Below, piece after piece: positions 4,136-61,656 of a stretch of DNA of 64,000 bases (positions are counted from its first letter, which is position 1; each line of letters opens with the position of its first letter). The stretch spans positions 1 to 64,000 of the forward strand of contig CAUYUJ010000295.1 of the NCBI GenBank assembly GCA_963575745.1, in the 5' to 3' direction. The notes below the pieces were generated by a model. The model was given only the letters and a program-made list of their open reading frames with translations, had not been told where the DNA came from and ran no database searches. The DNA comes from Prorocentrum cordatum. Its lineage: Eukaryota. A program made the translations under genes and the position numbers.

Positions 4136-4903
4136 AAACGTGTACGTGCTCCGGACGTGCACCCCGCGAAGCGAGAGGATCCATGGATCGGGGGAGGTGC
4201 CCTCCCCAGAATGCGGCCGGTGCTGCCCCGTTCGGCGGTGGAAATGTGTGATTTCCCACGGAAGCGGGGCCCGTCGCTGATCCACAACCCCCTGGATCCA
4301 TGTCTGCGATCGCCCGACTCGGGCGCTGCTCCCGGGGGGGGGGGGGGGGGCGGCCACGCACGGTGGGCGAGGGGAGGCTCGGCCTCGAACTCCGAGCCCT
4401 GCCCTCGCCGGTCGACGACTCAGGGCAACTCGGCAACTCTCGAGGGTCGGCGGGGGGCAGGGCTCGGAATGCGTCGAGCGCCCGGCGAAACCCCGACCCC
4501 AGCCGCGCCGCACTTTTCGTGCACCCTTTGGAGCCATAAACAAGGGCCCCCTTTCCTGCGACTCTAGGTGCCCCCCTTCCCATAGAATAAGAACAAATGA
4601 CATAAACATGAGCTTTTGGCGCTCCGCGTGGATTTCTTGGATCTGCGCGCGGAGGCGCCAACAGCCCATGTTCATGTCGCCTTCTCTTCGACCCCGCTCG
4701 TAGCCCCCGCCTCATTGCGAGACGCTGGATCTTGGGCCCCCCACCCCTCCCATAGCTGTTCTGAGCCCGCTCGGCGTCTCTCGTCGAGGCACTGGCCACC
4801 AGAGGCCCGGGCCGCGATCCCCGCCGTGCCTCCCGCGAGTGCCCTGAGGGTCGGGGCCCGTCTCTCCGAGCCAGCAGACGCTGGGACGCACAGAGACATA
4901 CTA

Positions 4904-12004: not shown

Positions 12005-13894
12005 TTTTCCTCCTCTGGCATCTGGGGCCGGGGGCCCCTACGACAACAGGCGGGCCCTCGCACACTGCGCCCGCCGCGCGCCCTCGGCCACAGGCGGCGG
12101 GTGTCGCACCCTGTGGGCGTGCGCGGCGCGGGCCCGAGAGCAACCCGCGCTCGGGCCCCGTCCCCAGCGGGGACACGCCCGCCCCCTGCGAAGGCGACCA
12201 GGCGAGGGGCCTGGGGACCCCATGCCGAGAGGGGCCTCCTCCTCCTTCTCCTTCTCCCCCTCCCTTTCTCATTCCTCCTCCTCCTCGTCCTCCCTCCTCC
12301 TCTTCCTCATCTGGAAGCCGGCCCCCATATGATCCGGGCCCCGCTGAAATCCGGGCGCGGGCGGCGGACCGGGCGAGGGGCCAGCGGTTGCTAAAAAATA
12401 GCCTTCCAGACCTATAGACCTATCTGGGCCGCCGAAAACCTCGACAAGAGTTAAGATGTCGAGGTCCTCGTGCAATCTTTCAGCCCTCCTGGAAGGTCAG
12501 GGCCCGGTTGGGGGCCCCCGACCTGGACCCCACGGGGGGGAAGCTGGGCCCCCCTGAGACCCGGGCGCTGCAATTCTTCAGCGCCGTGGGCGTCTCTGCG
12601 CGGTGTCGGGCCCCGGGGCCATCACAAACGGCTGCGGCTTGGCAGCTGCCGCAAAAATTGGCACGGGGCTCTGGATGGGATTTTTCGCGACGTTGCAGCT
12701 CTTCATGACGTCGGATCTCAGGCTTGGTCACCGACGATGCAAGGGTCCTCCTCGCGAGTCGGCGACGGCTGGCCTGGACCAAGACCAAGGCTGGCGCCGA
12801 CGAAGTCCCACGACATCTCGGTCATGGCCATCGTTCTTTCCTCGTCGTTTGCGTATGCGTTGACAGGACTATTGGAAAGGCTGGGGGGGAAGCGAAACAA
12901 CAAAAACAATCAAACAAATATTGGGTGTCGCCCCGCCTCCGAACGCGGAATGCAAACGGAAGCCCCTTCGATCGTTGAGATACGAAAGCACTCCATGTAC
13001 AGTCATCGTGCTACTACAAGGGAGCGCTGAGTAGGGAACGAAGGGGCTCCTCTGCATACAACGAGCCTCGGCCACGAGTAGGCTCGCCGGCCCGGATCGA
13101 AGGAGCGGCCCGGAACCGGGAACCCCCCCCGCCCTCAGTCCGACGTGGTCGTTATCTCGGCGTCCTGACTGTATGCTCGGATCTGCAAGTCTAGACACAG
13201 CATACCTCATGCCAGCGAAGCGGTCTGGACGGCTGCTTGCCCGCGTGTTTCCTTCTCTTGGTCCGTCTGCGCGCGCGGCCGCTATTTCATCGGCCCGCGC
13301 GTGCGTGGCTTGTCTTTTCGTGCCCTCCTTTCTTGTTGCAAGAGGGAAAAGATTTACACTGCCCCATGCCTGCAGTCCGCGGAGCACCTGGTCTGGTCCA
13401 GGTGTTTCGAAACACCTGCCGCTCCACAAAATGCAGGACTAATCTATACATTTAGATATGAGGCAAAGAAACGGTCTCACAAAAAATGTATTAGGCACGC
13501 CAGAAGTACACTCAGGATTCAAGCCTGTCGCCGAATCATCGTGCACGTCCTGCACTGAAAGATCTGTCCCGTATGAGGTCAAAAATGATTGGCCTGGCAC
13601 TGCGTCCGATCTTGTGCCTTCTCATCGCGACGTCCCTGCCCCCGAACTTGCACTACAAACTAATTCGGACATCTCAGAGGCTCTACCCCGAGGTTGTGTC
13701 CATGTAAAAAGAAAAAGGCATGGTGGAGGTCCGCGAGGATTATTGGACTTACGAGCCAGATGTACCGCCAGGAGGGGGCGTTTTTGTTCCTGGTCTTCGC
13801 ATGTAGGAGGCTCTACCCCGAAGCGCGTTCGGTGATGCCATGCAGAGGCCTGCTGTCGTGTGGGCATCGGCCACTGCCAGCACCGTCGCTGCCA

Positions 13895-14452
13895 TCAGTC
13901 GCTGCTGCTCGCATCGTCACTGCTGCTCCCACCTTCGCCGTCTTCGAAGCTTTCGTGAATCGTCTCGCTCTTATCTCTTGCCATCGTGGGATTAGCGTCG
14001 TTGAGCGCATTCCAGATCTCATTCTGAGTATTCACCCTGACCATGTCCATGGCAATCTCTTCCTGAGTCTCCTTTTCATTCGCATCAAACTTCTTCTTTG
14101 GCACACGTGAGACGCCCATGCGCTGCGACGTGCCCAACACTGCGAACACGGCAGCCAAGCTGAGATAGCCAATCATGAAGGCCGCCTGCGAGACGCCGAA
14201 TGCACCCTTAGTGCCTGTGAAATTCTGAAACGTAAGATCCGCACGAGGTTGGTGGACAATACCGAAGGTCGACAAGAACGCTCCCACAAGCGCCCAAATC
14301 GAACACTGCATGAAATTGGCATTGATGGCGAAGACGACCATTGCTGTCAGGATGATCGCAGATAGCAGGGAGCCATAGCCGAGAGCCATCAGCGAGGGAC
14401 TCCCTGCCCCTGGAGGCATCTGAGAGTTCGCCCAGTCTGCGATGGCTGGCAT
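13895..14452 (-). CDS. NCS2/AzgA-related nucleobase permease, last exon (exon 9)
   Basis: MPAIADWANS...GYGSLLSAIILTAMVVF...LSTFGIVH...GYLSLAAVF then an acidic tail and stop; several TM helices; taag| acceptor. Confidence 0.9.
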   Translation of the reverse strand: MPAIADWANSQMPPGAGSPSLMALGYGSLLSAIILTAMVVFAINANFMQCSIWALVGAFLSTFGIVHQPRADLTFQNFTGTKGAFGVSQAAFMIGYLSLAAVFAVLGTSQRMGVSRVPKKKFDANEKETQEEIAMDMVRVNTQNEIWNALNDANPTMARDKSETIHESFEDGEGGSSSDDASSSD

Positions 14453-14655
14453 CTTAGGGGAACGGAACATTACATAAACAGAGAACTCGGAGCTCCGCGC
14501 GGATTCCTTGGATCCGCGCCGTTCCCCCCTCCCTGGCGAGCGGAGCGCGCCCGGGGCGGCGCCGGAGGCGCCGCCAGGGGGGTCCAGCGCGGATCCGAGA
14601 AATCCGCGCGGACCTCCGAGTTTGTATGTTGATGTCATTGTTCGTTCCCCGACAT

Positions 14656-14844
14656 GAGTCCGATGATAGCTGCAGGGAGGTGCCGATTCTCGATGTTGCC
14701 GAACGTGTCCTGGTTGATCGCGAGCCCAATGAACAGCACGATCGGCGCGATGGCATACGGAGGGACGAGCGCGGCCACCATCGAGAACTGCCCGGTAACG
14801 CACATGAAGCAGAACAGCGCGCAGTTGAAGAAAGAATAACTCGC
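14656..14844 (-). CDS. Permease exon 8 (both boundaries ambiguous by a few nt)
   Basis: ASYSFFNCALFCFMCVTG...APIVLFIGLAINQDTF...HLPAAIIGL matches the family motifs GYS..NG, PIL..IGL.I..Q.F and HAPA..GL.P. Confidence 0.88.
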
Positions 14845-15615
14845 TGGCCCAATGGGCCAGAGGCGTGCTGAGATCTCTGGTTGTGTTGCTCCCATCGCGC
14901 TTAAGGACCATCTCCCAGAAATAATTTCGAGCACCCAGAAAAGTATCGAAACTGTGTCGGACGAGTATCGCCTCCCAGGGCCAGACACGTGGAAACCTTC
15001 AAGTTTTGGTACTTCCTTGGTGCGCGAAATCCCACCAGTCCTCTGGGCGTAGGTGGTCTAGGGAGCTTCCTCTTCCAATTCCCTTCTTCCCCGTCGGGGA
15101 GGGATTTATCACTGTTCCCTATTCATAAACACCCCCTCCCCCACCTGGCCTGCAGCCAACCCAGAATCATGCGGGCCCCCCCCCCCCAACATCCCTGCCA
15201 ACAACACAATACAAAATGCACATTGCGGGGCCCACCCTGCCAACACCCTCCACAATCCCTGTCCACAAAAATATACGAAGTGCACTTTGCAGCAAAATCT
15301 GGGCAGTGCGCTGGCGCCCTTGGAGCACGTGGTGTTGTTTTGCTGACAGGGATGGCGGGGCACCCCTAATGAAACCACTTTGTGCAGGACCACCCTCCGT
15401 GTCAAAAACAATGCAAAGTGCACGTTGCAACAACGTCGTGGGCGTTGTGCTGGCCAACCGCGATCACTTTGTATTGTTTTTGACCGGGACGGCGGTGGTG
15501 CTCGCATGATGATGTTTGCTATGCGCAAGCCCAGAACAATGCTGGCGCCCCCCACGTCAGCACCTGGACTATGCGGACGGGGGGGCATCACGTTTTTTTG
15601 TTGTTTTGTTTTTGT

Positions 15616-15651
<36 letters not shown>

Positions 15652-17525
15652 CTTACAAGGATGGCGCACCACCCGCATGTGGAGCCCGCGGCGAGCGTCG
15701 CGCCCCTGGCGTCCGCTTTGGTTCCCAATGGCTGTCCATCCAGTGGCGACCCCTGGCTATGCCGAGACTCGGATGCCACTTATATGGCGGGGGGGCGGGT
15801 GGGAGTGAGCTAAACGGCTTGCGTGCGGAGAGGGTGTCTTGACTCCTCCCCCCACCCCCCTCCCCTGGACCTGGACGGGGGGGCCGCGACGCGTTGGAGC
15901 GTCCAAAACGGTTCCGGCGAGAAAACGGATCTCATTTGTTCAAAAACAGTTGTGACCCCATTTTGGCATCTTGGGGGGGCAATGCTAATTAAAACTCTCC
16001 CTTTTTTTTGATCGATGTCCTCCAAGATGGCCCCAAGAGCGCTCCCAAGGCTCTCAGAAGCGCTTCAGCAGGGCCCCAAGAGGCGCATGGGAGGCCCCAG
16101 GAGGCCCCAAGAGGCGCCCGAGAGGCCTCCAAGAGGCTCCCAAGAGACCCCCAATGGGCACGAAGCATCCAAGACCCTCCAAGAGGCCTCCGGGTCAGCC
16201 AAGGGGCCCCCAGGACGCTCCAAGAGGCTCCTCTGCGTGCTGCCCACTTCCCTGATCGAGGCAACTCCTCCGGGCATCGTTTCTGGATGGGCTGGTGGAG
16301 TTACTTTTTGAATCGCGGCCCGCAAGGAGAAGTCCAGAGGGCGGTGTGACCGAGGCTGGGGCACAGCGACAGATAATTGGCGCGACATCGCGCAGAGTGC
16401 ACCTGCAGATAATTAAAAAGAGACGACCACGGTTCAACCCGCGGGTGGAAGCGAACCGAACGCGAGCCCAGCCGCTGAGCATGTGTCGGCAGAAGAGGGC
16501 AACCGCGGTGGGGAGAGCAGAAGCCCTGGTGCCACCACGCGGACCCCGAAAGCCGCTGAGCGTGTGCCAGCAGAAAAGGGCCAGGCGGGAACAGGTCGGA
16601 CCCGCAGGTGGAGTACCGACTGCCAGGAGGCGCGAGGAGAGATGGACAGCAAAACCTAGGGGGAAGCGTGGCAAATCCACTCACTTGACTCCCAGTGCGT
16701 GGGCCAGCGTGTACGCGGGCCACACACAAGCCACCGGGGGGGTTCGTGCCACAGAGCATACTTTTCACGGCCCGCACTCCCAGTCAATGCCTGGGAAAGG
16801 TTATTCAGCCGTCCACAGGGGAGGCCCGCGGTGGCCGCAGGTGCCATGACGGTGTGGTGCCTCCGCTCCCAGGAGGCACAAACTGTGGCCAGAGCCAACA
16901 TCTAGCTAGACGGCAGGGCGGTGCCTTTGGCCGTCGACCCTGTCCGCCGCGGGCCGGCAAGCGGCCAAACTATGAGTCCAAAAATGCCGACCGCACTGTC
17001 TACACGCCCATGTGTATGGGGGTCAGAAGTGGTAGTCGCTCCTGCGAGCGACGACGTGGAAGTCACTGCACGTTGCCGACTCCAAAGGATGGGGCACATG
17101 GAGGGGCCGCGTGGTGGAGTTACGCGAAGCGTCTAGAATTATTTCTGGTGGTCATAACTAAAATAGGTTGGAATCTCATACTCTCTGGTAGCGGATTTGC
17201 AGCTCTTCTAATTCGCGCGTTCCTCTTGGGCTGCCTTGTGGCATTATTGGGGGCCTCCTGGGCCGCGTCGGGCCGTCGCGCGCCCGAAAAGGCGGTGGCG
17301 CTCAAATGCTTCAGACACCCTGGGAACATAAGTACTTATTGGCTCTCTGGGTCTTCTTCGGGGTTCGTTTGAAGCGCCGTTTGGGTGTTCTAGAAGCCTC
17401 CTTCATGGACATCTTGCGGCGCTCTTGGACTGTCTCGGACCCGCGTGGCCTCGCTGCAGGCTTCGATGAAGGCTCATGGAACTCCTGGACGCCCAGACAA
17501 AAAAAAAAACATCCCTGACCCAGGG

Positions 17526-17704
17526 TCGGGGGCGTTCAAGAGGGTGGGGGCGCAAATCATGGCGGGCGGCACGTGCGCGGTCAAAGGGGGGGGGGGGCCG
17601 GGGTATTGAAATAAGAAAAAGTGCCGTGAAATGTGGGGCGACATCATGGCTCCCGCCATGAGATCCCCCACCCTAATCATCACCCCCCTCTTGGCCGCCC
17701 CCGA
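17526..17704. mobile_element. MITE family B (~180-200 bp); other copies 22096-22288 and 24878-25075
   Basis: TIR tcgggggcggtcaagagggg ... cccctcttgaccgcccccga; 5-bp flanks aatgc/aatac and tcttt/ttttt (no clear TSD at this copy). Confidence 0.85.
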
Positions 17705-18217
17705 CGCAAGGGTGGCCGGGCTGCGCCCAGGCTGCGCCCGGGACACTTTTCGCCCAGGGGACCCAGGCGGCCCAAGAGGCCCCTCTTTCTTCCCAAGGTG
17801 GCTCGAGACGTCTCAAGTTCTGTGCGTGTGAAACCATCACAGCTGCATTTTGCGGCGGTATTCGCCGTTCCTGCAGCCAAGGGTCTGACATGCCCCTCCA
17901 TGTTCGGCTGCCAGCACACGGCCCTGTCGTCTCTGTCCAAGGACTCCGCAAAGTCGTCTGGGAGAGGCTCTATCGCCCCCGAGCGTAGCATCTCCGTGCA
18001 TGCGTTGGGGGGGGGGCATCCCGAGGAGGTGACGAGTGCAGCGGAAGCGCTGCCGGAAGTCACGTTGGCACGCTGGGCAAACGCCGTCCGCCTTGACGTA
18101 CCTCTAGGTCGGGCATGTCCCCCCACAGGGGGATTTGGGACGAAAAATCAAAACAACAAAAATATGCTAACGGAGTTCCTCACATAAAGATGTTACGGGG
18201 TTCCATTGCTTCTTGAC

Positions 18218-19428
18218 TGCGCTCTGGTGGGGCCTCCCTGGAGGGGTGGGAGGGGCACGAAACCTGATGAATAATATGGTGTGCGAATACCCTGCCCGCT
18301 CTGGTGGGGCCTCCCTGGAGGGGTGGGAGGGGCACGAAACCTGATAAATAATATGGTGTACGGATACCCTGCCCGCTCTGGTGGGGCCTCCCTGGAGGGG
18401 TGGGAGGGGCACGACACCTGATAAATAACATGGTGTGCGAATACCCTGCCCGCTCTGGTGGGGCCTCCCTGGAGGGGCGGGAACGGCACGAAACCTAATA
18501 ATAAAATATGGCGTGCGAATACCCTGCCCGCTCTGGCGGGGCCTCCCTGGAGTGGCGGGAGGGGCACGAAACCTGATAAATAATATGGTGTGCGAATGCC
18601 CTGCCCGCTCTGGTGGGGCCTCCCTGGAGGGGTGGGAGGGGCATGAAACCTGATAAATCATATGGTGTGCGAATACCCTGCCCGCTCTGGCGGGGCCTCC
18701 CTGGAATGTTGGGAGGGGCGCGAAACCTGATAAATAACATGGTGTGCGGATACCCTGCCCGCTCTGGTGGGGCCTCCCTGGAGGGGTGGAGGGGCACGAA
18801 ACCTGATAAATAATATGGTGTGCGAATACCCTGCCCGCTCTGGTGGGGCCTCCCTGGAGGGGTGGGAGGGGCACGAAACCTGATAAATAACATGGTGTGC
18901 GAATACCCTGCTCGCTCAGGCGGGGCCTCCCTGGAGGGGTGGGAGGGGCACGAAACCTGATAAATAACATGGTGTGCGAATACCTTGCTTGCTCAGGCTG
19001 GGCCTCCCTGGAGGGGTGGGAGAGGCACGAAAACTTATAAATAACATGGTGTGCGAATACCCTGCTCGCTCAGGCGGGGCCTCCCTGGAGGGGTGGGAGG
19101 GGCACGATACCTGATAAATAACATGGTGTGCGAATACCCTGCCCGCTCTGGTGGAGCCTCCCTGGAGGGGCGGGAGGGGCACGAAACCTGATAAATAGCA
19201 TGGTGTGCGAATACCCTGCTCGCTCAGGCGGGGCCCCTCTGGAGGGGTGGGAGGGGCACGAAACCTGATAAATAACATGGTGTGCGAATACCCTGCTCGC
19301 TCAGGCGGGGCCTCCCTGGAGGGGTGGGAGGGGCACGAAACCTGATGTATAAATAATACCCTGCCCGCTCAGGCGGGGCCTCCCTGGAGGGGTGGGAGGG
19401 GCACGAAACCTGATAAATAACATGGTGT
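18218..19428. repeat. 77-bp minisatellite, about 15.7 copies, intronic
   Basis: Unit gaataccctgcccgctctggtggggcctccctggaggggtgggaggggcacgaaacctgataaataacatggtgtgc; unit starts at 18285, 18362, 18439. Confidence 0.95.
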
Positions 19429-20365
19429 GAGGAAAGGCATGGTATGGTATGGGATGATGGATGCATGGTATGGTATGGTAAGGTATGGTATGGAGTGGCA
19501 TGGTATTGGTATGGTACGATACAGTATGGGATGGTGGAGGAAGCGGGAGGAGGAGGAGGAGGAGGAGGAGGAGGAGGAGGAGAGGATGTTCTGGGAAAAC
19601 AAGAACCCCACTCAGGACGTGGGGAAAAAAACTACCCCGAACATGCTCAAACCTAGCCAAACAAATTATCAAAGCATCGTCCCCCTATTATTTGTTGGAC
19701 TATGTTGGGGTCTTCCTGCTGTAGAGAGACAGGCCGGACTTAAAACGTGCCGCCTCGCTTCGTCCCCGACGCCGTGAGCGGCGACGAGCCGGTGCTGCGC
19801 GGGGCCCCTCACGAGAGGCGCCGCGAGGCTCTCGAGAGAGCCGCCGCGAGGGGGGCCCCCGAGGCCGCCGGCAGGCCCCCGAGAGGCCCCGAGGGGCCGT
19901 TGGTACAGGGCACGAGGAGGAAGCGCGGTGACACAACACAATCCGAGAACTCCGTTGAGCACGCGCATGTGCTCGCAGCACATGCAAGCACGATTCACAG
20001 CACAAAAACGACGGGAACGTCCAGAAAACGAGAGGCCCCGAGCGGCCCCGAGCAGCGGATCCCCCGAGAGGCCCCCAGGATCTGTCTCTTCTCAGCGCAG
20101 CACCGTCTCGCAACCAGAAAGCCCCCGGAGATCCCCAGGAATGCGGCCAAGCCGCCCCCCAGGAGGCCTCCCAGAAGACCTCACGCCTCTCAAAGGGGCG
20201 TCTTGCCCACGACCCGCTTTGGCCCCCAGGAGTGCCCCAACAAGCCATCGAGAGGCCTCCTCCTCCTCCCCCTCCTCTTCCTGCTTATCGCTCGCCACTG
20301 GCACGCCACCAGAGCAGCAGTGATGCAGTATGGGCCGGCGGGATGAACGAAGCGATTGAATATAT

Positions 20366-20809
20366 TGTCCCTCCCGCGCGCTTGAGTGGCTTGTGGCTGC
20401 AGAAAACGCACGTGCCGAAAGGGGACCCAAACAAAGCGGACACCATCGTCGTGCATCCATCGACGACCAGCGTCTCCTTCACGCTGTACGGGTCACCCGC
20501 CTCGTGCGCATTGTACACAGACACCAATGTGTTGATAGCGCCGACAAAGGCTACAGGCAGAATGACCGAAATGTTTTCCAGTGCCACCTCTGGTATCTCA
20601 AAGAAGGCCTGCGTATCCAAAAGCCTAGGCGTATAGAAACGGAAGATCGAGGCGGCATTCTTGACCGACTCCCAAGTGCCGCCATCCTTGTCGACCTTGT
20701 CCTCTGGCCACCCTGAGCTGAACACCCATCCCATGAAGGCGCCAGCCAACATGATCATGACTGCGTTTGGAATCGGGTAGAACTTGACCCCGACGAAGTA
20801 ACCCAACAC
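20366..20809 (-). CDS. Permease exon 7
   Basis: VLGYFVGVKFYPIP...SVYNAHEAGDPYSVKETLVVDGCTTMVSALFGSPFGTCVFCSHKPLKRAGGT contains the hallmark A..AGD.Y...DG...LFGSPF; ctag|GTG acceptor. Confidence 0.93.
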
Positions 20810-21017
20810 CTAGAACACCAAATAACTAAGGAAAATTACAATTCTGGAGACCCGCGCGGATTTCTCGGACCGATGCTGGGCCCACATCTCCAGAGCGCGC
20901 CGGGGGTGGCGCCAAAGGCCCCGCGAGGGGTGCGGAGAGAAGGCCAGCGCTGGCGCAAGAAGTCCACGCGGGCCTCCAAATGATCTACGTTTGTACAGTG
21001 TCTCCGTTCCCGAACAC

Positions 21018-21140
21018 CGCAGTGGCCAGTGGCACAAAGCCCAAGTGCCCCGCGGCGAAGACCTTCATCAGCTGGGCGATGCCCAAGTGCGTCAGGCCGA
21101 CGCCAGCTAATGCGATCAGCAGCGCTGGTTTCGGGGCCAC
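21018..21140 (-). CDS. Permease exon 6
   Basis: 123 nt, VAPKPALLIALAGVGLTHLGIAQLMKVFAAGHLGFVPLATA (P..ALL..LAG motif); AG and GT boundaries. Confidence 0.92.
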
Positions 21141-21344
21141 CTTCATGTGTTGTTGTGCGCGTGGGTCTGTAAGAACATATACATCACTTCATAGGCAATT
21201 GTATGCAAGTGTGTATGCTTCTATCTATATTCTCAAATGCGCTTACGTATGTGTGTGGGCATATGCGTGCAGTTGCTAACCTGTGCAGTTATGATGTTTG
21301 CAGATCTTGATACCCAACCTCACAAGAACACATGTTGGAAGAAC

Positions 21345-21419
21345 CTTCATGATGGCCGGGCCAGCGAACCCGACCAAGGCAGCAATGAATCCAGCGGCAA
21401 GGTTCGCCACGGTGGTCAC
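21345..21419 (-). CDS. Permease exon 5
   Basis: 75 nt, VTTVANLAAGFIAALVGFAGPAIMK; gaag|GTG and AAG|gt boundaries. Confidence 0.9.
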
Positions 21420-23931
21420 CTTCGTCGCGGAAGCGCGCAAAAGAAAGACTCAGAATGAGACGCATCTCTGCTGGCACGACGGATCAGGGTCATGAAATGA
21501 GGGTAGCGGGTCCACGACAACTGGGCTTGCATCGGACTTCTTTGTCATTTTGAATGGCTTTCGGCGGACCCGAGTGAAACCCCTGATCTTCCTAGTCGCC
21601 TTCAAAATCAGTAGTTTGCTGAACCAAAGTCTCAACATTGTTTCCGACGCGACATTTCGTCATCAATAGATTGTAATGCGCCCTGAACTTGGACACGTTG
21701 GCCTGCACATTCCGAACTTCGCCCATCCCATTCCGCAATGCCGCCCCATTCTGGCCAGCTTGCCTGCCCCCCAATCGCGACCCCACAGTCACCCTGACTC
21801 CCTGGTGGCACTGCTCACTGTGACAGCACGTGCTAGACTCGTGTTGTCTGACTTCGCTAGCATAACCACTGATCAGATCCGCCACCGTACCGCAGGCTCG
21901 GAATGGACAAGTCCCTCTGAGTTCTCCATGTTGGATTAAGTAAAAAGCCTCTTGGGGCGCGCACGGGCGCTCCGTGTTTTCTCCCGCGTGGCCATTCTCC
22001 CCGAGGCCTCGGGACGGACGGCGTGCCTGTTCAGTTCCCACTTTTGGGGATTGTTACTGTTGGTCTTCCTTGTCTGATGCTCCGCTTGATTCTTTTCGGG
22101 GGCGGTCAAGAGGGGGGCGTCTCAGAGGGGGGGGTGCAAATCATGGCCGGCGGCACGTGCGCGGCCCAAGGAGGGGCCAGGGACGTAATGCAATGAGAAG
22201 AGCCGCCATGAAATCTGGGGACATATCATGGCCCACGCCATGATATCCACCCCCCCTTAGTCATCACCCCCCTCGTTGCCGCCCCCAATTTTTAATCGAA
22301 GAGCCCCTCCCGGGGCTCGCACCCTGTTTTTTAGAAAGGGAATTAATTGGCTGGCCACGTGGCCCCCGAACCACAACAACGTATTCGGCCTCGCGCACCC
22401 GCGCAGGGCCTCCTCACAGTGTGTGCAAGGATCGCGCTCTCGCGCGGGACTTCCTCGCCGCCTACTCACAAAGCGAAACCATGACACTCGGGCATGACGC
22501 TCTCGCCCTGGACTTCCTGACGATCTCCTTGGGATCGCGCTATCGCTCGAGACTGCCTAGCGGGTCATATAAGACTGACGCTTCAGCGACCCGCCCGCTC
22601 GACCTGGCCGCTTGGGCCCGCCCGCCCGCCAAGGTCCTCCCGCCCGACCCGCCCGTCTGGTTGTGCCACTGGTTTTCATGCTCCCATCCCCTGAGAATCT
22701 CGCTCATGTTCCGTTCTGCTCCGTCCCCCGTGTCCCGTCCTTCCATCCTCCCTCTCGTCCCCTGGGGCTGCACCAACTACACAGAGCAGGTAAGGTAGGT
22801 AACCCCCCCCCCAAAGGGACACGATCGAAGACGAAGAGGGCGGGTATCGAAGGTTTGGGATATACGTTCTGAATGGCATGCGAGCAAATAAAAAACAAGC
22901 ATTCTTAAATTGATTGCTGTTGCTGAATTCTCATGTCGAAGGTCAGTGAATGTGCTCCTCCTGGGGTTCGCACCCTGTTTTCTTAGAGGGGAAGGTCTTG
23001 TGCATCAGACTGCGCCCCCGCCACCGTTGTGCAACAGCAGCGGCTCCCGCCTGATACGCCCTGACAATTTAATCCAAGTCGCGCTCTCGCGCAGGACTTG
23101 CTGGCAGTGGACATGGATACACTCAGCCTACTCAGGGCCCGAACATATCTAGATGCACCGCCTGCAGGCCCCCCAGGCGCATGGGCAGGTCCCCGCGTTG
23201 GAATGGTGGCCTTCCCGAAATCAGCATTTGGTCGGGCGGGTCCCCCTACGGGCGGTTTTTTGGGTGAAAACTGCAAACTAGTCCAGCAATAATCCAAAAT
23301 ATAACAATATACTAGAAATATCGTCCCCATACTATTTTGACATGTTTTTGCATATACCTCCTGTAGAAAGACAGGCCCGACTTACGATCAGCAACCCCTG
23401 GGCCGCAACGAGCCATGTGCCATGCCGGGCTGACTGGGCGGGGTACAGACAGAGCTCCACGACGGCACGGGGGCGGGAGGGATGCCGCGGCCACGGCGAG
23501 GGCGCCGGGATCCGCTTGTGGCGGACGCTGCCGCGGCAGTCTTCGACACGACCGGGACCCTCCTCCAGGAACAGGCGCGGCTGGCTGGGGTCCTGCCCAC
23601 CCAGACCCCCGACGTCATGACTTTTCCATGACGCGACCCCCAGAGGTCTGGACCCATTCTCCGGGACCGGCTTCTCATCCCGAGTCGGTTTTTGGCGGTC
23701 CTGAGGCCCGTGAAGGGCCCCCAGAGAGCGAAAGTAGCGAAAAACCTTACGTCGTGACTTTTTCATGACTCGAGGGGGTCCTGCCGACCTGGGCGCTGGC
23801 CCCCGACACCGCGCGCAGCGTCGTCACCCTGGAGCGATGGAGGGTTCTGCCGATGGCGCCGGATCGCTCGACGTCGGCCGGCCGACCCAAGGACCACGCG
23901 CGGCGCTCCACCTGGAACGCCCGCGCTGGGG

Positions 23932-24100
23932 CCAGGTCGGGCACGTCCCCCCTGCAGGCGGATTTTTGGACGGCAAGTGTTTCAAACGTCACACATGCAA
24001 AAATAGCACAAATATGTATGATAAAAACAAAAAGCCGCCCCAGACCATGTTTTTAACGATCTTGGACTGCTCCTCCTGTAGAGGGGCGTGCCCGACTCAA
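23932..24100. mobile_element. MITE family C (hAT-like, ~130-170 bp, 8-bp TSD). Copies ~9593-9760, 10501-10650, 18105 (partial), 19610-19743, 23227-23385, 23932-24100, 24266-24432, 45765-45918, 46881-47041, 50510-50660, 55822-55952, 58452-58610, 58693-58845, 60450-60613, 63590-63750
   Basis: TIR ttaagtcgggcgtgtccccctacagg ... cctgtagagggacaggcccgacttaa; TSDs cgctgggg/cgctgggg, gatcaggg/gatcaggg, aatcagca/gatcagca, ggcaagga/ggcaaggt. Confidence 0.9.
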
Positions 24101-24568
24101 CGCTGGGGTCGCCGCCGCCTCGACACATCACGGCACGAGCCTGCTGCTCCCTGGGGACAGATGCATGCCTCCGCCCTGATTGCGCCCCACTCTGGACCGC
24201 CCGCCCGAGGCGAGAGATAAGTATCTCCCCCCCCCGGCATGCGGAGGATTTCGCACGGATTGAACTCAGACCGGGTATGCCATCCTACAGGCGGATTCTG
24301 GAAGGAAACAGCAAACACGGTCAAACCAGATTCAGAGATCTGCAAGAAGTAGTCGAAACATCGTCCTCTGACTATTTTGTTGACTATCTTTGAATGTTCC
24401 TCCTGTCGAGGGACATGCTCGACCCAAGGTTAAACATGATGAACGATGAATCAGAATCTAAATCACCCAGAGGAATCATAAGATTGGATCTTACGCTTCA
24501 ATTCCCGTCTGTGGCACTGCAAACGGGAAGCCATCATGTTTCATATTTGGACCACCCTTCTTCGTCGC

Positions 24569-24876
24569 CTTCCAAGCGTAATTGATGCCTTCCTCCCATT
24601 CCATGCCAGCCTCCTTAGCATCGCGTGCAGCCACGGCCATGATGTTGTAGACGAACGCAAATGCTGCAGCAGTGTTGACGCCGTACGGCATGCACATGTG
24701 GTCGCTCCGGCCGTCTACCCTCATCATGCGAATCGCCATCCAGGCATAGTAAAAATTACCGAATATCATGGTGATGCACATGCCATTGAGGATCCTGCCG
24801 TAGATGAGGCCCGAAATGAAGTCGTTCATCTGCGCCGTATCCACGCCTTCGTCCCCCTTCCAGGGTGATGACAATG
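24569..24876 (-). CDS. Permease exon 4
   Basis: ...GRILNGMCITMIFGNFYYAWMAIRMMRVDGRSDHMCMPYGVNTAAAFAFVY...YAWK contains the family motif GN..Y...A......GR.D...PYG.NT; GC donor AAG|gc. Confidence 0.92.
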
Positions 24877-25082
24877 CTCGGGGGCTGCCAAGATGGGGGC
24901 GTCCAAGATGGGAGGGCGCAAATCATGGCCAGCGGCATGTGCGCGGCCCAGAGGGGTGGCCAGGGACGTATTGAACTATATAAGAGAAGGCGCCATGAAA
25001 TCTGGGGAGATATCATGGGACCCGCCATGAAATCGACCTTCCCTTAGTCATCAGCCCCCTCTTGACCGCCCCCGAAATACAC

Positions 25083-25148
25083 CACGCATCCCCCCCACGA
25101 CTGCGACGATCGTACCCGTGATCTGAAAGAATAAGTTCAGGCCACAGT
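25083..25148 (-). CDS. Permease exon 3 (boundaries ambiguous by about 5 nt)
   Basis: DCGLNLFFQITGTIVAVVGGMR is the first TM helix following the GDxD motif; bounded on both sides by MITE termini. Confidence 0.78.
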
Positions 25149-25848
25149 CGATGATCGAGGAAGAAACACACGCGTGCGAACAGAACAACTGCCGGAAATC
25201 CGCGCGCGGTTTTCTCCCGGTTCGGCGCTGGACCCCCCCTTTCTCTGGCGCGGTGCTAGAGCGCCAGGGGCGGCGCCCAAGTTGGACGCAAATAAATGGG
25301 GTGGGCGAGAAAAAGACGATTCCAGAAACCCTGAACCCAAAAACGTTTTCATCTCTTTTGGGCGCATTTGTTACTTCCGCCACCTTCCACCGCCCTTCCG
25401 CCGGCTTCCGCCAGCGGAGGCGGCCTCGTTTCACTTCGGCCACCCTTCCGCCGCCCTTCCGCGGCGGAAGAGATGATAACTCCTTCGATCCTCGCAGGCA
25501 AGGCGATTTTTGGAACGCCTCAGCTGGTGGAGGGGGGGAAGAAAGGGGCGACTCGGGCCCTCAAGGCCCTCTTCTGGGCCCCAGCAGGCCTCTCCAAGGG
25601 CCCATTGTAGGGCCGCGCTTCGGCAGCCCTCGCCGTCCCCTCATTTATCGCCCCACCCATTCGCGCGCCCTCCAACCCAGGAGCCGCCCAAGGGGGTCCT
25701 GCGCCGACCCAAGCACTCCGCGCGGACTCCTCCTCCTCCTCCTCCTCCTCCTCCTCCTCCTCCTCCTCCTCCTCCTCCTCCTCTCCCCCTCGTTTCCCCT
25801 CCCCCTCCTCCCCCTCCCTGTCTGCTTCTGCAGGTGTTTCCTCTTCGA

Positions 25849-25890
25849 GATGTCGCCTACCGCCGGGGCGACGGGGAGGAGCCCGCGGAC
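25849..25890 (-). CDS. Permease exon 2
   Basis: caag|GTC acceptor; VRGLLPVAPAVGDI. Joined to exon 3 it gives GDID, the conserved N-terminal motif. Ends exactly at a family-A terminus. Confidence 0.7.
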
Positions 25891-26267
25891 CTTGCAGCAT
25901 CGAATTGGCATCGAAGCGGCAAAATCGGATCGGACCGACATGTGCGTCGGATCGGGCTGCATCGGCACGGAGTCGGAATCGAATCGGATCGGCCACGCCT
26001 GTTTTCCACCACCACCACCACCATAAGTTGGAGGGGGGAAGGAGGTGGAGGATGAGGAGGAAGAAGAGGAGGACCCCCTCCCCCCTCAAACTTATGGTGG
26101 TGGTGGTGGTGATGGAAAATAGGCACAACAGGATCGGCCACGCGGCCAAGCCACCTTGCACGGCAACGCCAGGCAACCATCGGGCCGCATCGGAGTGTCG
26201 GCACATCGGGATCGGATCGAATCGGGCCAGCCACCATCGACATCGAATTGTGTCGATTGGACCGAAA

Positions 26268-26457
26268 CCCAGACCCCCGACGTCATGTTTTTTTCCATGA
26301 CGCGAACCCAATAAATACGCATGGACCCATTTCCAGGAACTGGTTTTTCATCCTGAGTCGTTGTTTGACGGTCACGAAACCAGGTAAGGGTACCCAGAGG
26401 CCGAAAATAGCGAAACGCCTTCCGTCGTGACTTTTTCATGACTCGAGGGGGTATGGG
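26268..26457. mobile_element. MITE family E (CCC...GGG termini, 2-bp TSD, CMC/EnSpm-like). Copies ~5702-6076 (interrupted), ~9981-10165, ~23601-23783, 26268-26457, 45371-45552, 61022-61209
   Basis: cccagacccccgacgtcatga ... tcatgactcgagggggtctggg; flanks AA/AA, AA/AA, AC/AC. Confidence 0.8.
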
Positions 26458-26707
26458 AATAAACCCTGCCTTGGCACGCTTGGACTTCTTCGGCGGCTCG
26501 CCGGCCATAACCGGAATCTCGCAGACGGTCGGGCGGTGCCCCTTCGGCCGTAAGAAGCCCCCGCTGCGCGCACTCGGGCAGCCTGGATCCAAAAAAATCT
26601 GCGCACGCGCGCGCGGGAGTGAGCGATCGACGTCGGCGTCGCAGGCGGCACAGTGAAGATAACAACTAAAGGAAAACGGCCAGCGAAGTACAACCGAAGA
26701 GCTTGAC

Positions 26708-26734: not shown

Positions 26735-27121
26735 GGCGTCGACAAAGAGCAAGTGCAACAGCTGTGGTTTCAGAACAGCTGTGGCTGAGGTCGAGGAACA
26801 CCAGAGTCCACCACATGAGCATGAACTTCCCGAGGTCCGCGCGGATCTCCTGGACCAGTGCGAGACCCCCCTGGCGGCGTCTCCCGCGCCGCGACTGGCG
26901 CGCTCAGCGCGCTAGGGAAGGGGTCCAGCACAGATCCAAGATATCAGCGCGGATCTCCAACAATTCATGTTTATGTAACTGTTGTTCCGCCCCCGCTCTT
27001 CTTCTCCCCCCCCTCCCCCTCAGAGGCACAACGTTTGCTCTCCGTTGCGCGCGTGCTTGTTCAGGCCACTGCGCTGTAGCCTCGCCCGTTTACGGGCCAA
27101 CCCATGTGGTTTGATCGGGCC

Positions 27122-48405: not shown

Positions 48406-50709
48406 TAACCCACACTCACCCCCGCCAGGAACCCCACTCCCGACCTGGTGATCCAGGAGGTCCTGGGGGTGGCGGCCTTTTTGGCCCCCAGGACCTGGCG
48501 GAAGTGCGGGTGGGTTGCGCTGCCCTGAGTCGGCCTCCCTCCTCGTTCTTTCCCTACCGATGCCGATCGCACCGAATGACGATTGAGAAGACCTTTTTTC
48601 GGGCGCGCGCCCCCAGAACCCCTCGAGGCCGGTCCCCTGCGCGCGCCGCGCGCCAAACCCCACAGGCGCGCCGCGGCGGCACTGCCGCCCCCGAAGGGCC
48701 ACTGGCACTGCGGGCGGCCCGAAGCAGGCAGCGGTGCGGTGGCCGGGAGCCTTCTGCGTAGAAGCAGGGACCAAACAAGGACAGAAACATAAAAACTCGC
48801 AGGTCCGCCCGGACATCTTGGATCGGCGCTGGAGCCCCCTGGCGGCGCCTCCGGTGCCGCCCCTTGCGCGCTCCGCGCGCCAAGGAGGGGGGATCCAGCG
48901 CCGATCCAAGAAATCCGCGCGGACCTTCGAGTTGTGATGTGTATGTCACGGTTTGTTCCTCGATCGAAGGGCCGACTGAGGACTCACGACGGCGCTATGG
49001 AGGCCACCCAAAAGGGAATGGAGAAGATGGGGTCGGATGATCGCGCCGCATCGCTGATGCCTCCGTGACGCTGGGACGGAGATAACCAAGCTCCAGCTCG
49101 TGCCGCATTGCCGACGCATCTAGAGAAGACAAATTCACAGAAACATTAACTTTCGGAGGTCTACGAGGTTCTCGTAGATCGGTGCTGGACCACACTTTAC
49201 AGCGCGCGGAGCGCACCAGGGGCGGCGCCGGAGGCGCCGCCAGGGTGGCCCAACGCCGATCCAAGACCCTCGCACGGACCTCCAAAAGGTTAGTTATGCT
49301 CATGTATGTCGATGTTCTTCTGCGAGCATCGGCGATTCAAAGGCGAAGGGAGGAGCGAATAGCCCAGGGGCGGGCCTTACACGCATCCGCCGGGGAGCCT
49401 CGCCGAAGACGTGAACCACCGGCGCCCCTGGATGCGCATGTGCTGTCCCCCCCGGGCTGTTCGCCCCCCATCGTCGCCTCCGAGCGATGCGGCGTGATGG
49501 GCCGACCCCATCTGCTCTGGCCTGCGACTGAAGGGCAACGGTACTCCCGCTCCGGGGGGGGGGGAACGCCGACCTGGAAGCAACGATGCCTCGCGAGTGG
49601 ATTGGCGATGGGCCCCCGAGAGCGAACGTCCGCACGCTCCTGGGCGGGGCGGGCCATCGGGCTTCCATCCGCGTCACGTGGGCACATGGGCGGCTGGGGG
49701 CCGATGCTCAGTATCCCCCTGAACCCGTCCCCCCTCAATAGAAGCTTCGCGCATCGGGTCCCAACAGATAGGGCATGACAGTGTCGGAGGATCGCGCCGC
49801 ATCGCCGCCGCATCGCCGCGATGCACCAACGACAGAACGGTGACGTCGGCGACGCATCGGCGCAGTCGGCGCGGAGAAAATCGGACCCCACGTTGAGCCG
49901 CATCGCCGATGCATCGGCCATACGGCGCGAGTATCCGATTCCACCTGTTCCGACCCCATCTTGGAGGCCCCACTTAGCCCGTACCTTCACCTCCCTCCCC
50001 CTCCCTATACGCCACTCAGGACGCTTCTAACCAAATTGGAAACCACGTTATTCCTAATATGTGTATATAGTTATATATATATATATGTATGTGAACAGAC
50101 ACAAATGCATATCTCTCTATATGTGTATAAAACTATTTATGTACATCTGTACACATACATATGTATATATATGTATGTTTACACATATCTTTAGTACATA
50201 CATGTACATATACATGTGTATATATATATATATATATATGTAGGCAACCCACCTCGGCATCCAATTCATTTTCCATGTAAGTACCCCTCCCCCTTATCAA
50301 TTGATCAACTACCGATGTGTTTCAAGTAATGCTGCCCTGCCAATTGCGAGTCATAGCCCGGGTCTCCAGCGGCCGTTCGGGACGAGCATGTCCAGAATGT
50401 CCGCGCTGACTCTACAACAATTTTGCCCTACTGCGGCGCCGCGAGCTCCGCGCTGCCCATGATCCCCCTGACGCTGCGCCAAGGTCCGCGCCTGCGAGAC
50501 CGGCAGCCAGACTTCGGGCGTGTCCCCTAAAGGCGGATTTCTGATAAACAACATTTGAAACATATTCAAACATATTCACAAAACTAATAGAAACATCGCC
50601 CCAAAACTATTTTTGTTACTATGTTTGAACGTTCCTCCTGTAGAGGGACAGGCCCGACGCCGCGGCGCTCCGCTCAGCCGCTGCGCCTCGGCGGCCGCGA
50701 CCCAGGCTC

Positions 50710-59000: not shown

Positions 59001-61656
59001 GCCGCCGGGGGGGCCCAGCGCGGATCCTGGAAATCCGCGCGGAGCGCGAACCGTTTCATGTTCATGGCGTTTTTTCTTCTTCGAGATCCGCCGCGGGGGG
59101 TTTACGACACATTACACAGAGGGCGTGTTTTGTTGCTGTTCGGACGTTTGCGAGTAGGCACTTTGGGAGCAGCGGAACGCGCTCGGTGAACAGCGAGTGG
59201 TGGGCTTGCTCTCCACCGCCACCACCATCAGAGGGGGAGGGGGTCCTCCTCCTCCTCCTCCTCCTCCTCCTCCTCCTCCTGCTCCTGCTCCTCCTCCTCC
59301 TCCTCCTCCTCAACTTACGGTTGTGGTGGTGGGAAACAAACCCATCAGAGAGAGCCGCACCGAGAGCGGGTAGGCGCTCCCAGCCACGCCTGGAGCCTCG
59401 GCCTCGAACAGGCTCCCGCCTGCAGGGCCCCAGGCCCGACCACCGGAGTCCCACGCCGTGAGCCCGCAGCGGTCTTTCGCTCGGCACGCTTTGACTGTAA
59501 ACATAAACAAAGACATACAAACTCGGCAACTGGAGACATGAACATAAGCACAAACATAAGCAGAAACGGTCATCGGGGAACGAAAAAGGACATAAACGTA
59601 GAAACTTGGAGGTCCGCGCGGACTTCTCGGATCGGCGCTGAGGCCTCCTGGCGACGCCTCCGGCGCCGCCCCTGGCGCGCTCCGCGCGCCAGGGAGGGGG
59701 GTCCAGCGCCGATCCGAAGAATCCGCGCGGACCTCCGAGTTCTTATGTTTATGTCATTCCTCGTTCCCCAATGACCGCAGGCAGCCGACTGCGACGCAAT
59801 CCCCGTCGCCTAGTGTTCGGGTTATGCAGTCGGCCCGTACCAGAAGGATGCGCGATACGGATGCAGGGGCCTTGGACGCCCATTTCGAAGCTTTTCGCGC
59901 GGGGCGCGGCCAACGAAAGTGGCCAAGGATGGGCCGAGGAGGTAAAAATGCAATGGCACCCTTGGGAAAATCGCTATCCTTACTGTGCGGGTCGACTGTA
60001 ACTCGGGTCCCCGGCGGCCGTTCGGGATGGTTCGGACAAGCCCGGAACGCCCTCGGCGAGGCGCGGCTGCCGGAAAGCATCGCGAGGTTGGGAAGCCGCC
60101 GAGAACCTGAAAACGTGCAACCGAATCGAATCTTCCGAACGCAGCCGACTGCGACGCAGCCGAACCGACTGAATCGCTCACGCCCCTAACCCGCAGCGGG
60201 CCCCGCAAACGGTAAGGTCGCGTTTATGCCATGTGCGAAAACGTTGAGAAACACTGCTCATCAAAACGGGGCAAAACAATTGCTTCAGAATTGGAGCCCG
60301 AACCAGAACTAAAAACAAAAACGGTTGTGGAACCGGGGAATAGAAACGGCTCCGGAACCAACAACAAATCAGCAAAACGGAACCTGCAAAAATCTGCTTC
60401 CTAAAACATCTATCCCTGGACCTCTCCTGGGATGCGTTCTGTCTAGAATTACGACTGACATGTCCTCCTACGGGCGGATTTTGGAGGAACAAGAAAAAAC
60501 TGTCAACATAAATATTCAAAAATAGTAATATAAAAAATTCCCCAAAATCGTGCCCAGACTATTTTTTTACTATTTGTGCATATTCCTCCTGTAGAGGGAC
60601 ACGCCCGACTTACGCCTAGAATTTCGAGGCGGATCCAGGCGTGGCCACGAGAGCGCTCCAGGACGATCAAGAGCATCTAGAGAGCGAACCTCGAACCTCG
60701 AACCCCTGAACCCCTGAACCCGCCCTCGTCCGACGAAAACGCACGACCGAACCAAACCTTCCGAACGCGGCCGACGGCCACGCAACCGAGCCGACCGAAG
60801 CGCGCACGCGCACGACCCACCATCCGGAGGCGAGCGAGGGGGGGAAGTGACACGGAGAAGGCCTTCCCAGAAGGCGGCGGGACTTCTCAGAAGCCCTCGC
60901 GCCTTCCGAGAAGGTCTTCTGCGTCTTCGGGAAAGGCTGAGAAAACTTCTCAGAAGGCCGGGGGATTTCCGAGCCTTCCGAGAAGGCCTGCCCCTTCTCA
61001 CTTCCCCCCCGAGCTCGCCACCCCAGACCCCCGACGTCATGACCTTTCCATGATGCGACCCCCAGAGATCCGGACCCATTCCCCGGGACCGGTTTTTCCT
61101 CCTGAGTCTTTCTCTGACGGTCGCGAGGCCCGGTGAGGGCCCGCCTAGGCCGAAGATTGCGAAAAACCTCTCGCGCCGCGATTGTTTTCACAGCCCGAGG
61201 GGGTCTGGGACCGCTCCTCCTGCTCCTCCTCCTGCTCCTGCTCCTCCTCCTCCTCCTCCTCCTCCTCCTCCTGCTCCTCTTCCTCCTGCTCCTGCTCCTC
61301 CTCCTCCTCCTCCTCCTCCTCCTCCTCCTCCTCCTCTCCTCCTCCTGCTCCTCCTCCTGCTCCTCCTGCTCCTCCTCTCCTCCTCCTCCTCCTCCTCCTC
61401 CTCCTCCTGCTCCTCCTCCTCCTCCTGCTCCTGCTCCTGCTCCTCCTCCTCCTCCTCCCCTCTCCTCCTGCTCCTCGTCCTCCTCCTCCTCCTGCTCCTG
61501 CACCTGCTCCTGCTCCCTCCTCTCCTCCTCCTCCGCTCCTCTCCTGCTCCTGCTCCTCTCCTGCTCCTCCTCCTCCTCCTCCTCCTCCTCCTCCTCCTCC
61601 TCCTCCTCCTCCTCCTCCTCCCCCTCCTCCTCCTCGTGGCGCATCGGCCGGCGGTC

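Follow-up and report, generated by a model that had tools for sequence, protein, structure and literature searches.

Within a 64,000-nt stretch of the Prorocentrum cordatum genome (contig CAUYUJ010000295.1, referred to below as the window), the minus strand carries a gene for a multi-pass membrane protein that runs from about 26508 to 13898, and a 203-nt insert separates two of its exons at 14453-14655. On that strand the upstream side reads CAC CTC CCT GCA GCT ATC ATC GGA CTC ATG, followed by TCGGGGAACG, and the downstream side reads CGTTCCCCTA, followed by AG ATG CCA GCC ATC GCA GAC TGG, with the A of the first ATG at 14655 and the G of the AG at 14453. The insert consists of a palindromic element resembling a miniature inverted-repeat transposable element (MITE) together with one copy of its target-site duplication (TSD). 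An earlier note on this DNA, made from the sequence alone, had placed here an intron that could only be AT-AG or GT-AT, and both its coordinates and its border sequence were confirmed on the minus strand. The gene has six introns, every one of which begins with the same base or bases as the exon that follows it.

The exons on either side of the insert are read in different frames. The upstream open reading frame (ORF; 14635-15057) ends in HLPAAIIGLMSGNEQ and a stop codon, the frame of the 61-codon upstream exon meeting a stop seven codons into the insert (AAIIGLMSGNEQ, then stop), and the downstream ORF (13895-14998, MPAIADW…) uses another frame; excision of 203 nt joins the two. The GT..AG pair that stands in place, from 14653 to 14453, encloses 201 nt, and a test construct built on it runs into a stop at codon 232, which is 21 codons past the junction. 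A GC donor further upstream (CCT|GCA) would remove AAIIGL in frame.

A protein search with the downstream exon returned two P. cordatum records, P0001 (574 aa), which is 100% identical over the searched part, and the paralog P0002 (406 aa), which is 73% identical over that part. P0002 reads NRHLPAAIIGLMPAIADWANSQM, that is, the upstream frame, a single Met and the downstream frame, and this single-Met join means that 203 nt must be removed. The RNA-supported three-exon model is open throughout, with 357 residues aligned to P0002 and no gap at either junction. A search for relatives among 1.84 billion representatives gave 830 at E <= 0.001, and 11 relatives of full length, with 27-49% identity, were aligned together with P0002 and both exon translations. 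The junction is free of gaps in all 11 of these more distant homologs, and G253 and P256, two residues apart on either side of the join, belong to the seven columns conserved at 90% or more in the 11-homolog alignment. The last exon is intact across 185 codons and keeps the family-wide motifs. As for the product, Pfam gave no match for P0001, P0002 or the exons, one of the 14 aligned sequences matches Xan_ur_permease (1.7e-5), TIGR00801 NCS2 matches the exon weakly (E = 0.022), and a profile search against PDB returned nothing at 0.01. These weak hints towards NCS2/xanthine-uracil permeases suggest that the multi-pass membrane protein is possibly NCS2-like.

The exact loss of the 203 nt is seen in RNA. 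The stretch 13898-14900 was found in 20 of the 24 listed runs, 18 of which hold at least half of its words; no run holds all of it, and the best word share, 0.68, fits transcripts without the intronic parts. We aligned to 13700-15100 the contigs of four runs, each from a different study and including an explicit poly-A RNA-seq library and a metatranscriptome. In all four, one contig joins 14449 to 14653, a skip of exactly 203 nt; the shorter side of the joint is 105-121 nt long, and three ambiguous bases, the ATG common to both borders, leave four end pairs: AT..AG, TG..GA, GT..AT and TC..TG. The contigs match this locus, with 0 differences over 871 nt in three runs; they cover 13700-14449 with 0 differences in three runs, and in three runs the exon flanks are identical to the assembly up to the junction. 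The metatranscriptome run differs at 13773 only, a position in the 3′ untranslated region where an A>G change plus an inserted GG is probably a strain variant. Neither a 201-nt joint nor a joint from the upstream GC donor occurs among the contigs of the four runs, a form of data that drops rare forms. The bin 14452-14498 has no contig in three of the four runs; contigs cannot show absence, and this gap is no evidence that unspliced RNA is missing.

On every point that can be checked these results bear out what the earlier note had read from the sequence: that the conserved HLPAAIIGL-MPAIADW join calls for a 203-nt excision with one of four end pairs, which are the same four that the RNA contigs leave in four of four runs, that the join is conserved, as its gapless alignment in P0002 and the 11 homologs attests, that the GT..AG pair shifts the frame, and that the upstream GC donor would delete six residues in frame. 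That note had also named two findings that would speak against it, a cDNA using the upstream GC donor and an indel putting GT-AG in frame. No contig of the first kind turned up in the four runs, and since the exon flanks match the assembly in three runs, no exon indel puts GT-AG in frame.

The public model P0001 is misframed in this region. It reads GGTIYSI LFFLQLRAVLLHVRYRAV…SYHRTH MPAIADW, which is the upstream exon in the wrong frame. Read by its junctions, it uses a GC donor 7 nt past the true end of exon 5 (20354-20360) and then the 201-nt GT-AG pair; with 7 + 2 = 9 nt added, its frame closes again, but about 64 residues are wrong, because one forced canonical site is compensated by another. 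In its right frame the upstream exon is found at 100% in no database protein of 108-2000 aa, the best matches being P0002 (95%) and P0152 (82%). According to the P. cordatum genome paper, all predictors were modified for GC and GA donors, and GT (24.7%), GC (51.4%) and GA (23.8%) together account for 99.9% of donors, so that position +2 of the dinoflagellate donor is already free.

Table 1. Positions of the introns, exons, element parts and TSD copies in the window.
Feature	Positions	Strand	Remarks
Intron, AT..AG register, 203 nt	14453-14655	-	RNA contigs, 4/4 runs
Equivalent placement, TG..GA	14452-14654	-	Same mRNA
Equivalent placement, GT..AT	14451-14653	-	Same mRNA
Equivalent placement, TC..TG	14450-14652	-	Same mRNA
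Upstream exon (YSFFNCALFCFMC…NRHLPAAIIGL)	14656-14839	-	RNA contigs, 14653-14839; loose end at 14839
Last coding exon (MPAIADW… to stop codon 13895-13897)	13895-14452	-	ORF and RNA contigs
Family-A element proper, 198 nt, TC GGGGAACG…CGTTCCCC TA	14455-14652	-	Near-palindrome, no ORF
5′ terminal inverted repeat core GGGGAACG	14643-14650	-	5 nt after the AT-register 5′ junction
3′ terminal inverted repeat, pyrimidine tract TGTTCCGTTCCCCT	14457-14470	-	12/14 pyrimidines, then TA, then AG
Upstream TSD copy TCATG	14653-14657	-	TC exonic (CTC = Leu); ATG intronic in the AT-AG register
Downstream TSD copy AGATG	14450-14454	-	AG, last intron bases; ATG, Met of the next exon
Upstream intron, 5.5 kb, TT..AG (or TC..GT, CA..TT)	14840-20360	-	No G donor; RNA contigs
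Intron 4, GT-AG, made by another family-A copy	20810-21017	-	Predicted from protein continuity with P0002 (ATAVLGYF)
Element of intron 4	20811-21013	-	
TSD copies of intron 4 (GGTGT)	21014-21018 and 20806-20810	-	

The element belongs to a repeated family, family A, whose statistics cover the 64-kb window. It aligns with its own reverse complement at 76% over 197 nt by blastn and at 80.8% by global alignment, and owing to this palindromic symmetry the 3′ arm would be pyrimidine-rich in either orientation. As RNA it is predicted to form one long hairpin with a minimum free energy of -151.8 kcal/mol (z = -11.6; none of 200 shuffles was as stable), the stem starting at GGGGAACG and ending at CGTTCCCC (14457), 4 nt before the 3′ junction. 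A 20-mer from the element end has three matches at up to 3 mismatches, against 0.00 expected, blastn finds 12 other places in the window, and a six-copy profile finds 12 places at E <= 0.001, namely eight near-full copies including this one, one truncated copy that is broken off by a (TA)n run, and three fragments. The present copy is 89.2% identical (174/195) to the family consensus, and the resulting divergence of about 11% is a lower bound because the consensus includes this copy. Contigs within 14524-14650 show 1-3 mismatches, loose ends on both sides and high depth in three runs; such mismatched contigs imply that other family-A copies are present in transcripts elsewhere in the genome. 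This copy has the features of an introner, or MITE-derived spliceosomal intron, with many similar copies, terminal inverted repeats without coding capacity, a fixed-length TSD and a place in a gene yet absence from the mRNA; the feature missing in it is a set of canonical splice sites (GT/GC/GA with AG).

Rfam on 14300-14800 gave only Fungi_SRP, which at 14.6 bits against a gathering score of 65 was rejected, and a degenerate core pattern run on metagenome contigs hit one locus, a half copy without the left end that is of no use for the termini. For the remaining near-full copies, which we label c11, c26, c48, c49, c58 and c59 alongside the one in intron 4, Pfam identified no domain in 140 of the 427 window ORFs of at least 90 aa (those at 42.3-62.9 kb), with one sub-threshold Nha1_C match among the ORFs of 42.3-62.9 kb, and tests of GC by codon position did not mark the flanks of these six copies as coding. 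Three further observations concern the copies themselves. A TGTAA[T/C] lies about 20 nt before the 3′ end in this copy, in intron 4 and in c26 (14471-14476, 20830-20840 and 26960-26975), and five other family-A copies read TG[T/C/G]CA[T/C/G] at that site; in the spliced copies this could be a branch-site adaptation or chance. Copy c59 (59573-59771) has flanks, GGTCA and TGACC, that are reverse complements and no TSD, and its palindrome extends 7 nt past the usual terminus (CGGTCAT…ATGACCG), and it could have arisen by fold-back or repair or represent a longer parent form. At 4589-4650 lies a derivative of about 60 nt that holds the two outer arms only (profile positions 5-65 and 131-190, overlapping on opposite strands), possibly an internal-deletion form.

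As element ends we took the dinucleotides that border the G-run and the C-run on the outside, which are TC…TA in most copies, and on this basis the eight near-full copies define the geometry [5-nt TSD][TC..TA][5-nt TSD]. The flanking pentamers agree at five of five positions in the intron-4 copy (GGTGT), c49 (GATGC) and c58 (GGATC), at four in c11 (TCTGG/TCTTG), at two in c59 and at one in c48 and c26, and these flanks indicate that family A makes 5-bp TSDs. The chance of at least three perfect TSDs in eight copies at a fixed geometry is 5e-8, a nominal figure that is too small; we regard the geometry as real since the TC…TA ends common to the copies are an independent check. The TSD copies that the earlier note had proposed at our locus, TCATG and AGATG around the bracket TCGGGG…CCCCTA, agree with the geometry obtained from the other copies (three of eight perfect, one at 4/5).

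At this locus the two TSD copies match at three of five positions, and AGATG differs from TCATG solely at the two bases that form the AG. The AG is absent from the family consensus end (GTTCCCCTA), and the upstream, exonic copy still has TC, within a CTC codon for a Leu that the paralog has too. That the mismatched bases spell AG behind a pyrimidine tract, in the sole frame-restoring register that would use it, is remarkable, and as a pattern of bases it lends moderate support to the AT-AG register and to the idea that the intronic copy gained an AG. The AG would have arisen by selection or substitution in that copy, as far as one locus can suggest.

Two other introns of the same gene bear on how this one is cut. 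Immediately upstream, the contigs of all four runs leave the exon at 14839 with one 30-nt consensus. This is the end of the preceding exon (20361-20390) in reverse complement, and it defines a 5.5-kb intron; the join, ACA ATA TA|T TAT TCT, encodes the TIYYSF that the paralog also has, and the borders share a 2-nt repeat (TT). Among its three registers TT..AG is the sole one with a canonical half-site, and none has a GT donor. No inverted repeat was found between its ends, and the idea that it is a hairpin intron was rejected on that ground. A tandem array with a 77-bp unit (15.8 copies, 90% matches) lies inside it at 18220-19429. Intron 4 appears as exon ACT GCG, intron GTGT-TC…TA-G and next exon GTG TTG: its donor GT is bases 2-3 of the TSD, its acceptor AG combines the A of the terminal TA with TSD base 1, and its 3′ architecture (…GTTCTA-G|) is the same as that of the 203-nt intron. 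Under this intron-4 rule copy c49 (49121-49325, minus orientation), whose TSD is GATGC, would yield an AT..AG intron (G|ATGC…TA-G|ATGC) if it were exonic; its precise excision leaves one open frame over 476 nt, in which coding evidence was not found.

The borders of the remaining introns described here also carry repeats. Intron 2 (21429-24562, minus strand) has the 9-mer GCGACGAAG at the start and the end of a predicted GC-AG intron, in the same codon phase, so that the mRNA could read AWK|VTT or AWKATK|VTT; the public model has AWK|VTT. In intron 3 (21147-21345, minus strand) the repeated border is CATGAAGGT, 9 nt, and in intron 1 (24860-26469, minus strand) it is AAGG.

Taken together, the frame, the RNA and the element suggest that the 203 nt are probably removed by the spliceosome as an AU…AG intron with a conventional 3′ end and a 5′ site that lacks G. 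According to this reading, a palindromic non-autonomous DNA transposon from a family making 5-bp TSDs would have inserted into coding CTC ATG CCA, and the pre-mRNA would lose the element plus one TSD copy, thereby restoring the pre-insertion frame. The terminal repeat of the element would provide the pyrimidine tract TGTTCCGTTCCCCT, and the AG would open the downstream TSD copy, in place of the TC of the target. The target TCATG would have offered no G to build on, and with the 5′ cut at CTC|AUG the intron would be AU...AG and would lack a G at +1. The hairpin would hold the cut sites within about 9 unpaired bases and may help to pair them. Only AT..AG, out of the four end pairs, keeps an AG behind the pyrimidine tract, and with AT..AG here and TT..AG in the neighbour one rule, a strict AG and a free donor, would cover both introns.

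Several points weigh against this spliceosomal AU…AG reading. The four registers are alike in the mRNA, and GT..AT would retain a canonical donor. The nominal TSD probability is too optimistic because the boundaries were chosen after looking, the first-guess boundaries having given matches of 3, 1, 1, 4, 4, 1, 2 and 3 of 5 and the final ones having been set by eye once the flanks had been viewed; at the 5-nt geometry c48 and c26 have no TSD, and the flanks of c59 are reverse complements. With a divergence of about 11%, two mismatches are no rarity within a 5-nt TSD, and that they spell AG, the one striking thing about them, is a single observation. Assembled contigs lose rare isoforms and reveal no lariat, so that we infer the spliceosomal chemistry rather than observe it. 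Among the 24 listed runs (best share 0.68) no DNA run containing the stretch was found, and the bases on the intron side of the boundaries therefore come from the assembly alone. A gene copy without the insertion could lie elsewhere in the 4.75-Gb genome. Direct repeats beside a strong hairpin favour template switching by reverse transcriptase, for which the 3-nt repeat on either side of this very stable hairpin makes a classic setting.

Several alternatives can be weighed against the evidence above. If the same intron were cut in the GT..AT register, it would have a canonical GU donor (GT at 14653-14652) and an AU acceptor, would yield an identical mRNA and would satisfy the G at +1 that published core-dinoflagellate donor sets assume, the AG in the TSD being a coincidence. 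We consider this unlikely: the acceptor …CTAAGAU|G would leave unused an AG that lies 2 nt upstream behind a pyrimidine tract, the two AG-creating TSD substitutions would go unexplained, and the TT..AG neighbour, which has neither a donor G nor a hairpin, shows that splicing of this gene can do without such a G. A-to-I editing, which would turn the AU donor into IU, was also considered and rejected, having no support and leaving the TT donor next door unexplained. Slightly less likely than the GT..AT register is a hairpin-guided excision, in which cuts would be measured from the stem and the end dinucleotides would be irrelevant, as has been proposed for Amoebophrya and the euglenids. The very stable hairpin across the whole intron, 5 and 4 nt from the junctions, fits such a mechanism, as do an 8-nt inverted repeat and a 3-nt border direct repeat that fall under the definition of Farhat et al.; against it, the 5.5-kb neighbour also lacks a G donor and has no inverted repeat at its ends, the pyrimidine tract followed by AG is that of ordinary 3′ sites, the Euglena code N3-CDG…CH′G-N5-6|R matches none of the four registers, and in intron 4 the offsets place 4 and 1 nt of the TSD inside the intron, against 3 and 2 here, so that the distance from the stem is not fixed.

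There may also be no splicing at this locus at all, the joint being either a jump of reverse transcriptase between the ATG repeats or the mRNA of an identical, element-free copy, with the present locus a pseudogene. The repeats and hairpin just described suit a jump, and the high duplication of dinoflagellate genes (P. cordatum genome paper; PMC5032977) suits a second copy, for which no DNA run containing the stretch was found that could reveal an empty site. Nevertheless we hold this to be very unlikely. All four runs, each from a different study, have this joint as the contig form; the contigs also link exon 5 and exon 6 over the 5.5-kb intron, whose borders share a 2-nt repeat only, which a hairpin jump cannot explain; a processed copy lacking both introns would itself come from this splicing; the perfect match over 871 nt in three runs contrasts with the 73-95% protein identity of the known paralog; and a last exon that is open over 185 codons with its motifs kept argues against a pseudogene. 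Least probable of all is an assembly error at the intron edge, such as a spurious AT after CTC, that masks an ordinary 201-nt GT-AG intron. It gains from the intron-side bases being known from the assembly only, but the error would have had to yield, by chance, a 3-nt repeat consistent with the TSD geometry of the family, RNA confirms the exon sequence as far as both junctions, and a second, independent non-G donor lies 184 nt upstream. The spliceosomal AU…AG removal thus stays the reading that we prefer.

U12-type introns can end in AT-AC or AT-AG, and their branch site, TCCTTRAY, lies about 10-26 nt before the 3′ end. The present intron was rejected as U12-type: it starts ATGTCGGG and not RTATCCTY (consensus quoted in PMC5032977), there is no TCCTTRAY at the usual distance, the nearest likeness, TTCCCCTAAG, ending at the junction itself, and the minor spliceosome is reported absent from alveolates (PMC7789003). 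The nonconventional introns of euglenids (PMC3935182, PMC4770533, PMC6221363, PMC12501133) resemble this one in their variable non-canonical borders and in a structure that joins the ends; euglenids are an unrelated lineage, however, and an AG with a pyrimidine tract is present here. Checked by eye, the Euglena-type signature (PMC12501133) fits no register, and this assignment too was rejected: the TG register alone gives CGG at +4..+6, with no complementary CCG 5-6 nt before the 3′ border.

Of known systems, the non-canonical introners of Amoebophrya A25 and A120 (Farhat et al., 2021, PMC7789003) come closest. They too form a repeated family with inverted repeats of 8-20 nt at the ends and a direct repeat of 3-5 nt at the borders, and they share with our element a predicted hairpin joining the exon ends, the lack of GT-AG and ambiguous borders. 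The insert falls within the definition that Farhat et al. (2021) used operationally and Dougan (2023) took up again, with an inverted repeat of 8-20 nt at most 30 nt from the ends, a direct repeat of 3-5 nt and RNA-supported non-GT-AG borders. The differences lie in the host, which here is a free-living core dinoflagellate whose gene models are GT/GC/GA-AG only, in the clear MITE features of the element (the TC…TA terminus and the 5-bp TSD), features that Farhat et al. were unable to demonstrate for most of theirs, and in the AG acceptor behind a pyrimidine tract, the same family also yielding a canonical GT-AG intron in the gene. Their definition has also been applied to P. cordatum, where such elements were found in 2.4% of introns, in models with G donors only. 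In the papers cited here, non-GT-AG borders this free are described for Amoebophrya only, and some C-starting donors are remarked on in S. kawagutii.

In the introner-like elements of Symbiodinium and Polarella glacialis (Roy et al., 2020 preprint, 10.1101/2020.10.14.339549), the insertion of a DNA transposon gives rise to the intron, splice sites are formed from the TSD and the element end, and excision restores the exon, as at our locus. Intron 4 follows exactly the scheme given there, in which the TSD supplies the 5′ site and the element end the AG. The 203-nt intron departs from it: the TSDs of the classes of Roy et al. start with GH or AGGH and the donor is always G, whereas here the TSD is TCATG with no in-frame G donor; the AG lies in an altered TSD copy and not in the element; and the TSD lengths quoted there are 4 and 8 nt, against 5 bp here. 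Likewise, the identically repeated intron boundaries (IRIB) of dinoflagellates (Mendez et al., 2015, PMC5032977) comprise 2-9 bp present at both borders and kept once in the mRNA, which leaves the border position ambiguous, as with the 3 bp ATG here and the 2 bp TT at the 5.5-kb intron; the IRIB repeat as described there always has GG or AGG and is cut between the Gs, and neither intron here has such a G. In the 203-nt intron there is no G at the exon end (CTC|) or after the acceptor (AG|A).

For Micromonas pusilla and Aureococcus anophagefferens, Huff, Zilberman and Roy (2016) are reported to describe introners that are non-autonomous DNA transposons with terminal inverted repeats and TSDs, carrying one splice site and co-opting the other. 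These introners use canonical splice motifs (per PMC7789003), and this copy does not. In the literature surveyed, on dinoflagellate introners and non-canonical splice sites, we found no non-G donor for a transposon-derived intron in a free-living dinoflagellate.

The locus therefore offers an RNA-supported case from a core dinoflagellate in which a transposon-made intron is removed precisely without a donor G, with a second non-G donor in the next intron. One family in one gene would have had both outcomes, the target GGTGT leading to a GT-AG intron and the target TCATG to an AT-AG intron, and the acquisition of splice sites by new transposon introns becomes countable, through TSDs, junctions and AG-creating changes across the family copies. 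Should misframing of the kind seen in P0001 be common, proteome and expression studies of the bloom-forming P. cordatum inherit the error. A broader proposal, which we advance only tentatively and regard as doubtful, is that in P. cordatum the 5′ splice site need not begin with G and is marked by the start of the intron being the same as the start of the downstream exon (the TSD/IRIB repeat), paired with a pyrimidine-tract-AG 3′ end. If that were true, any family-A insertion, whatever its 5-bp target, would be removable at once or after one or two AG-creating substitutions, with canonical and non-canonical introners as parts of a single continuum. The same misframing would affect a sizeable share of the 85,849 public models, built with GT/GC/GA donors only, and free-donor splicing would have left its mark in the unusually low share of AGG acceptors in the P. 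cordatum genome, 79.7% against at least 93% in the non-parasitic dinoflagellates with which it was compared.

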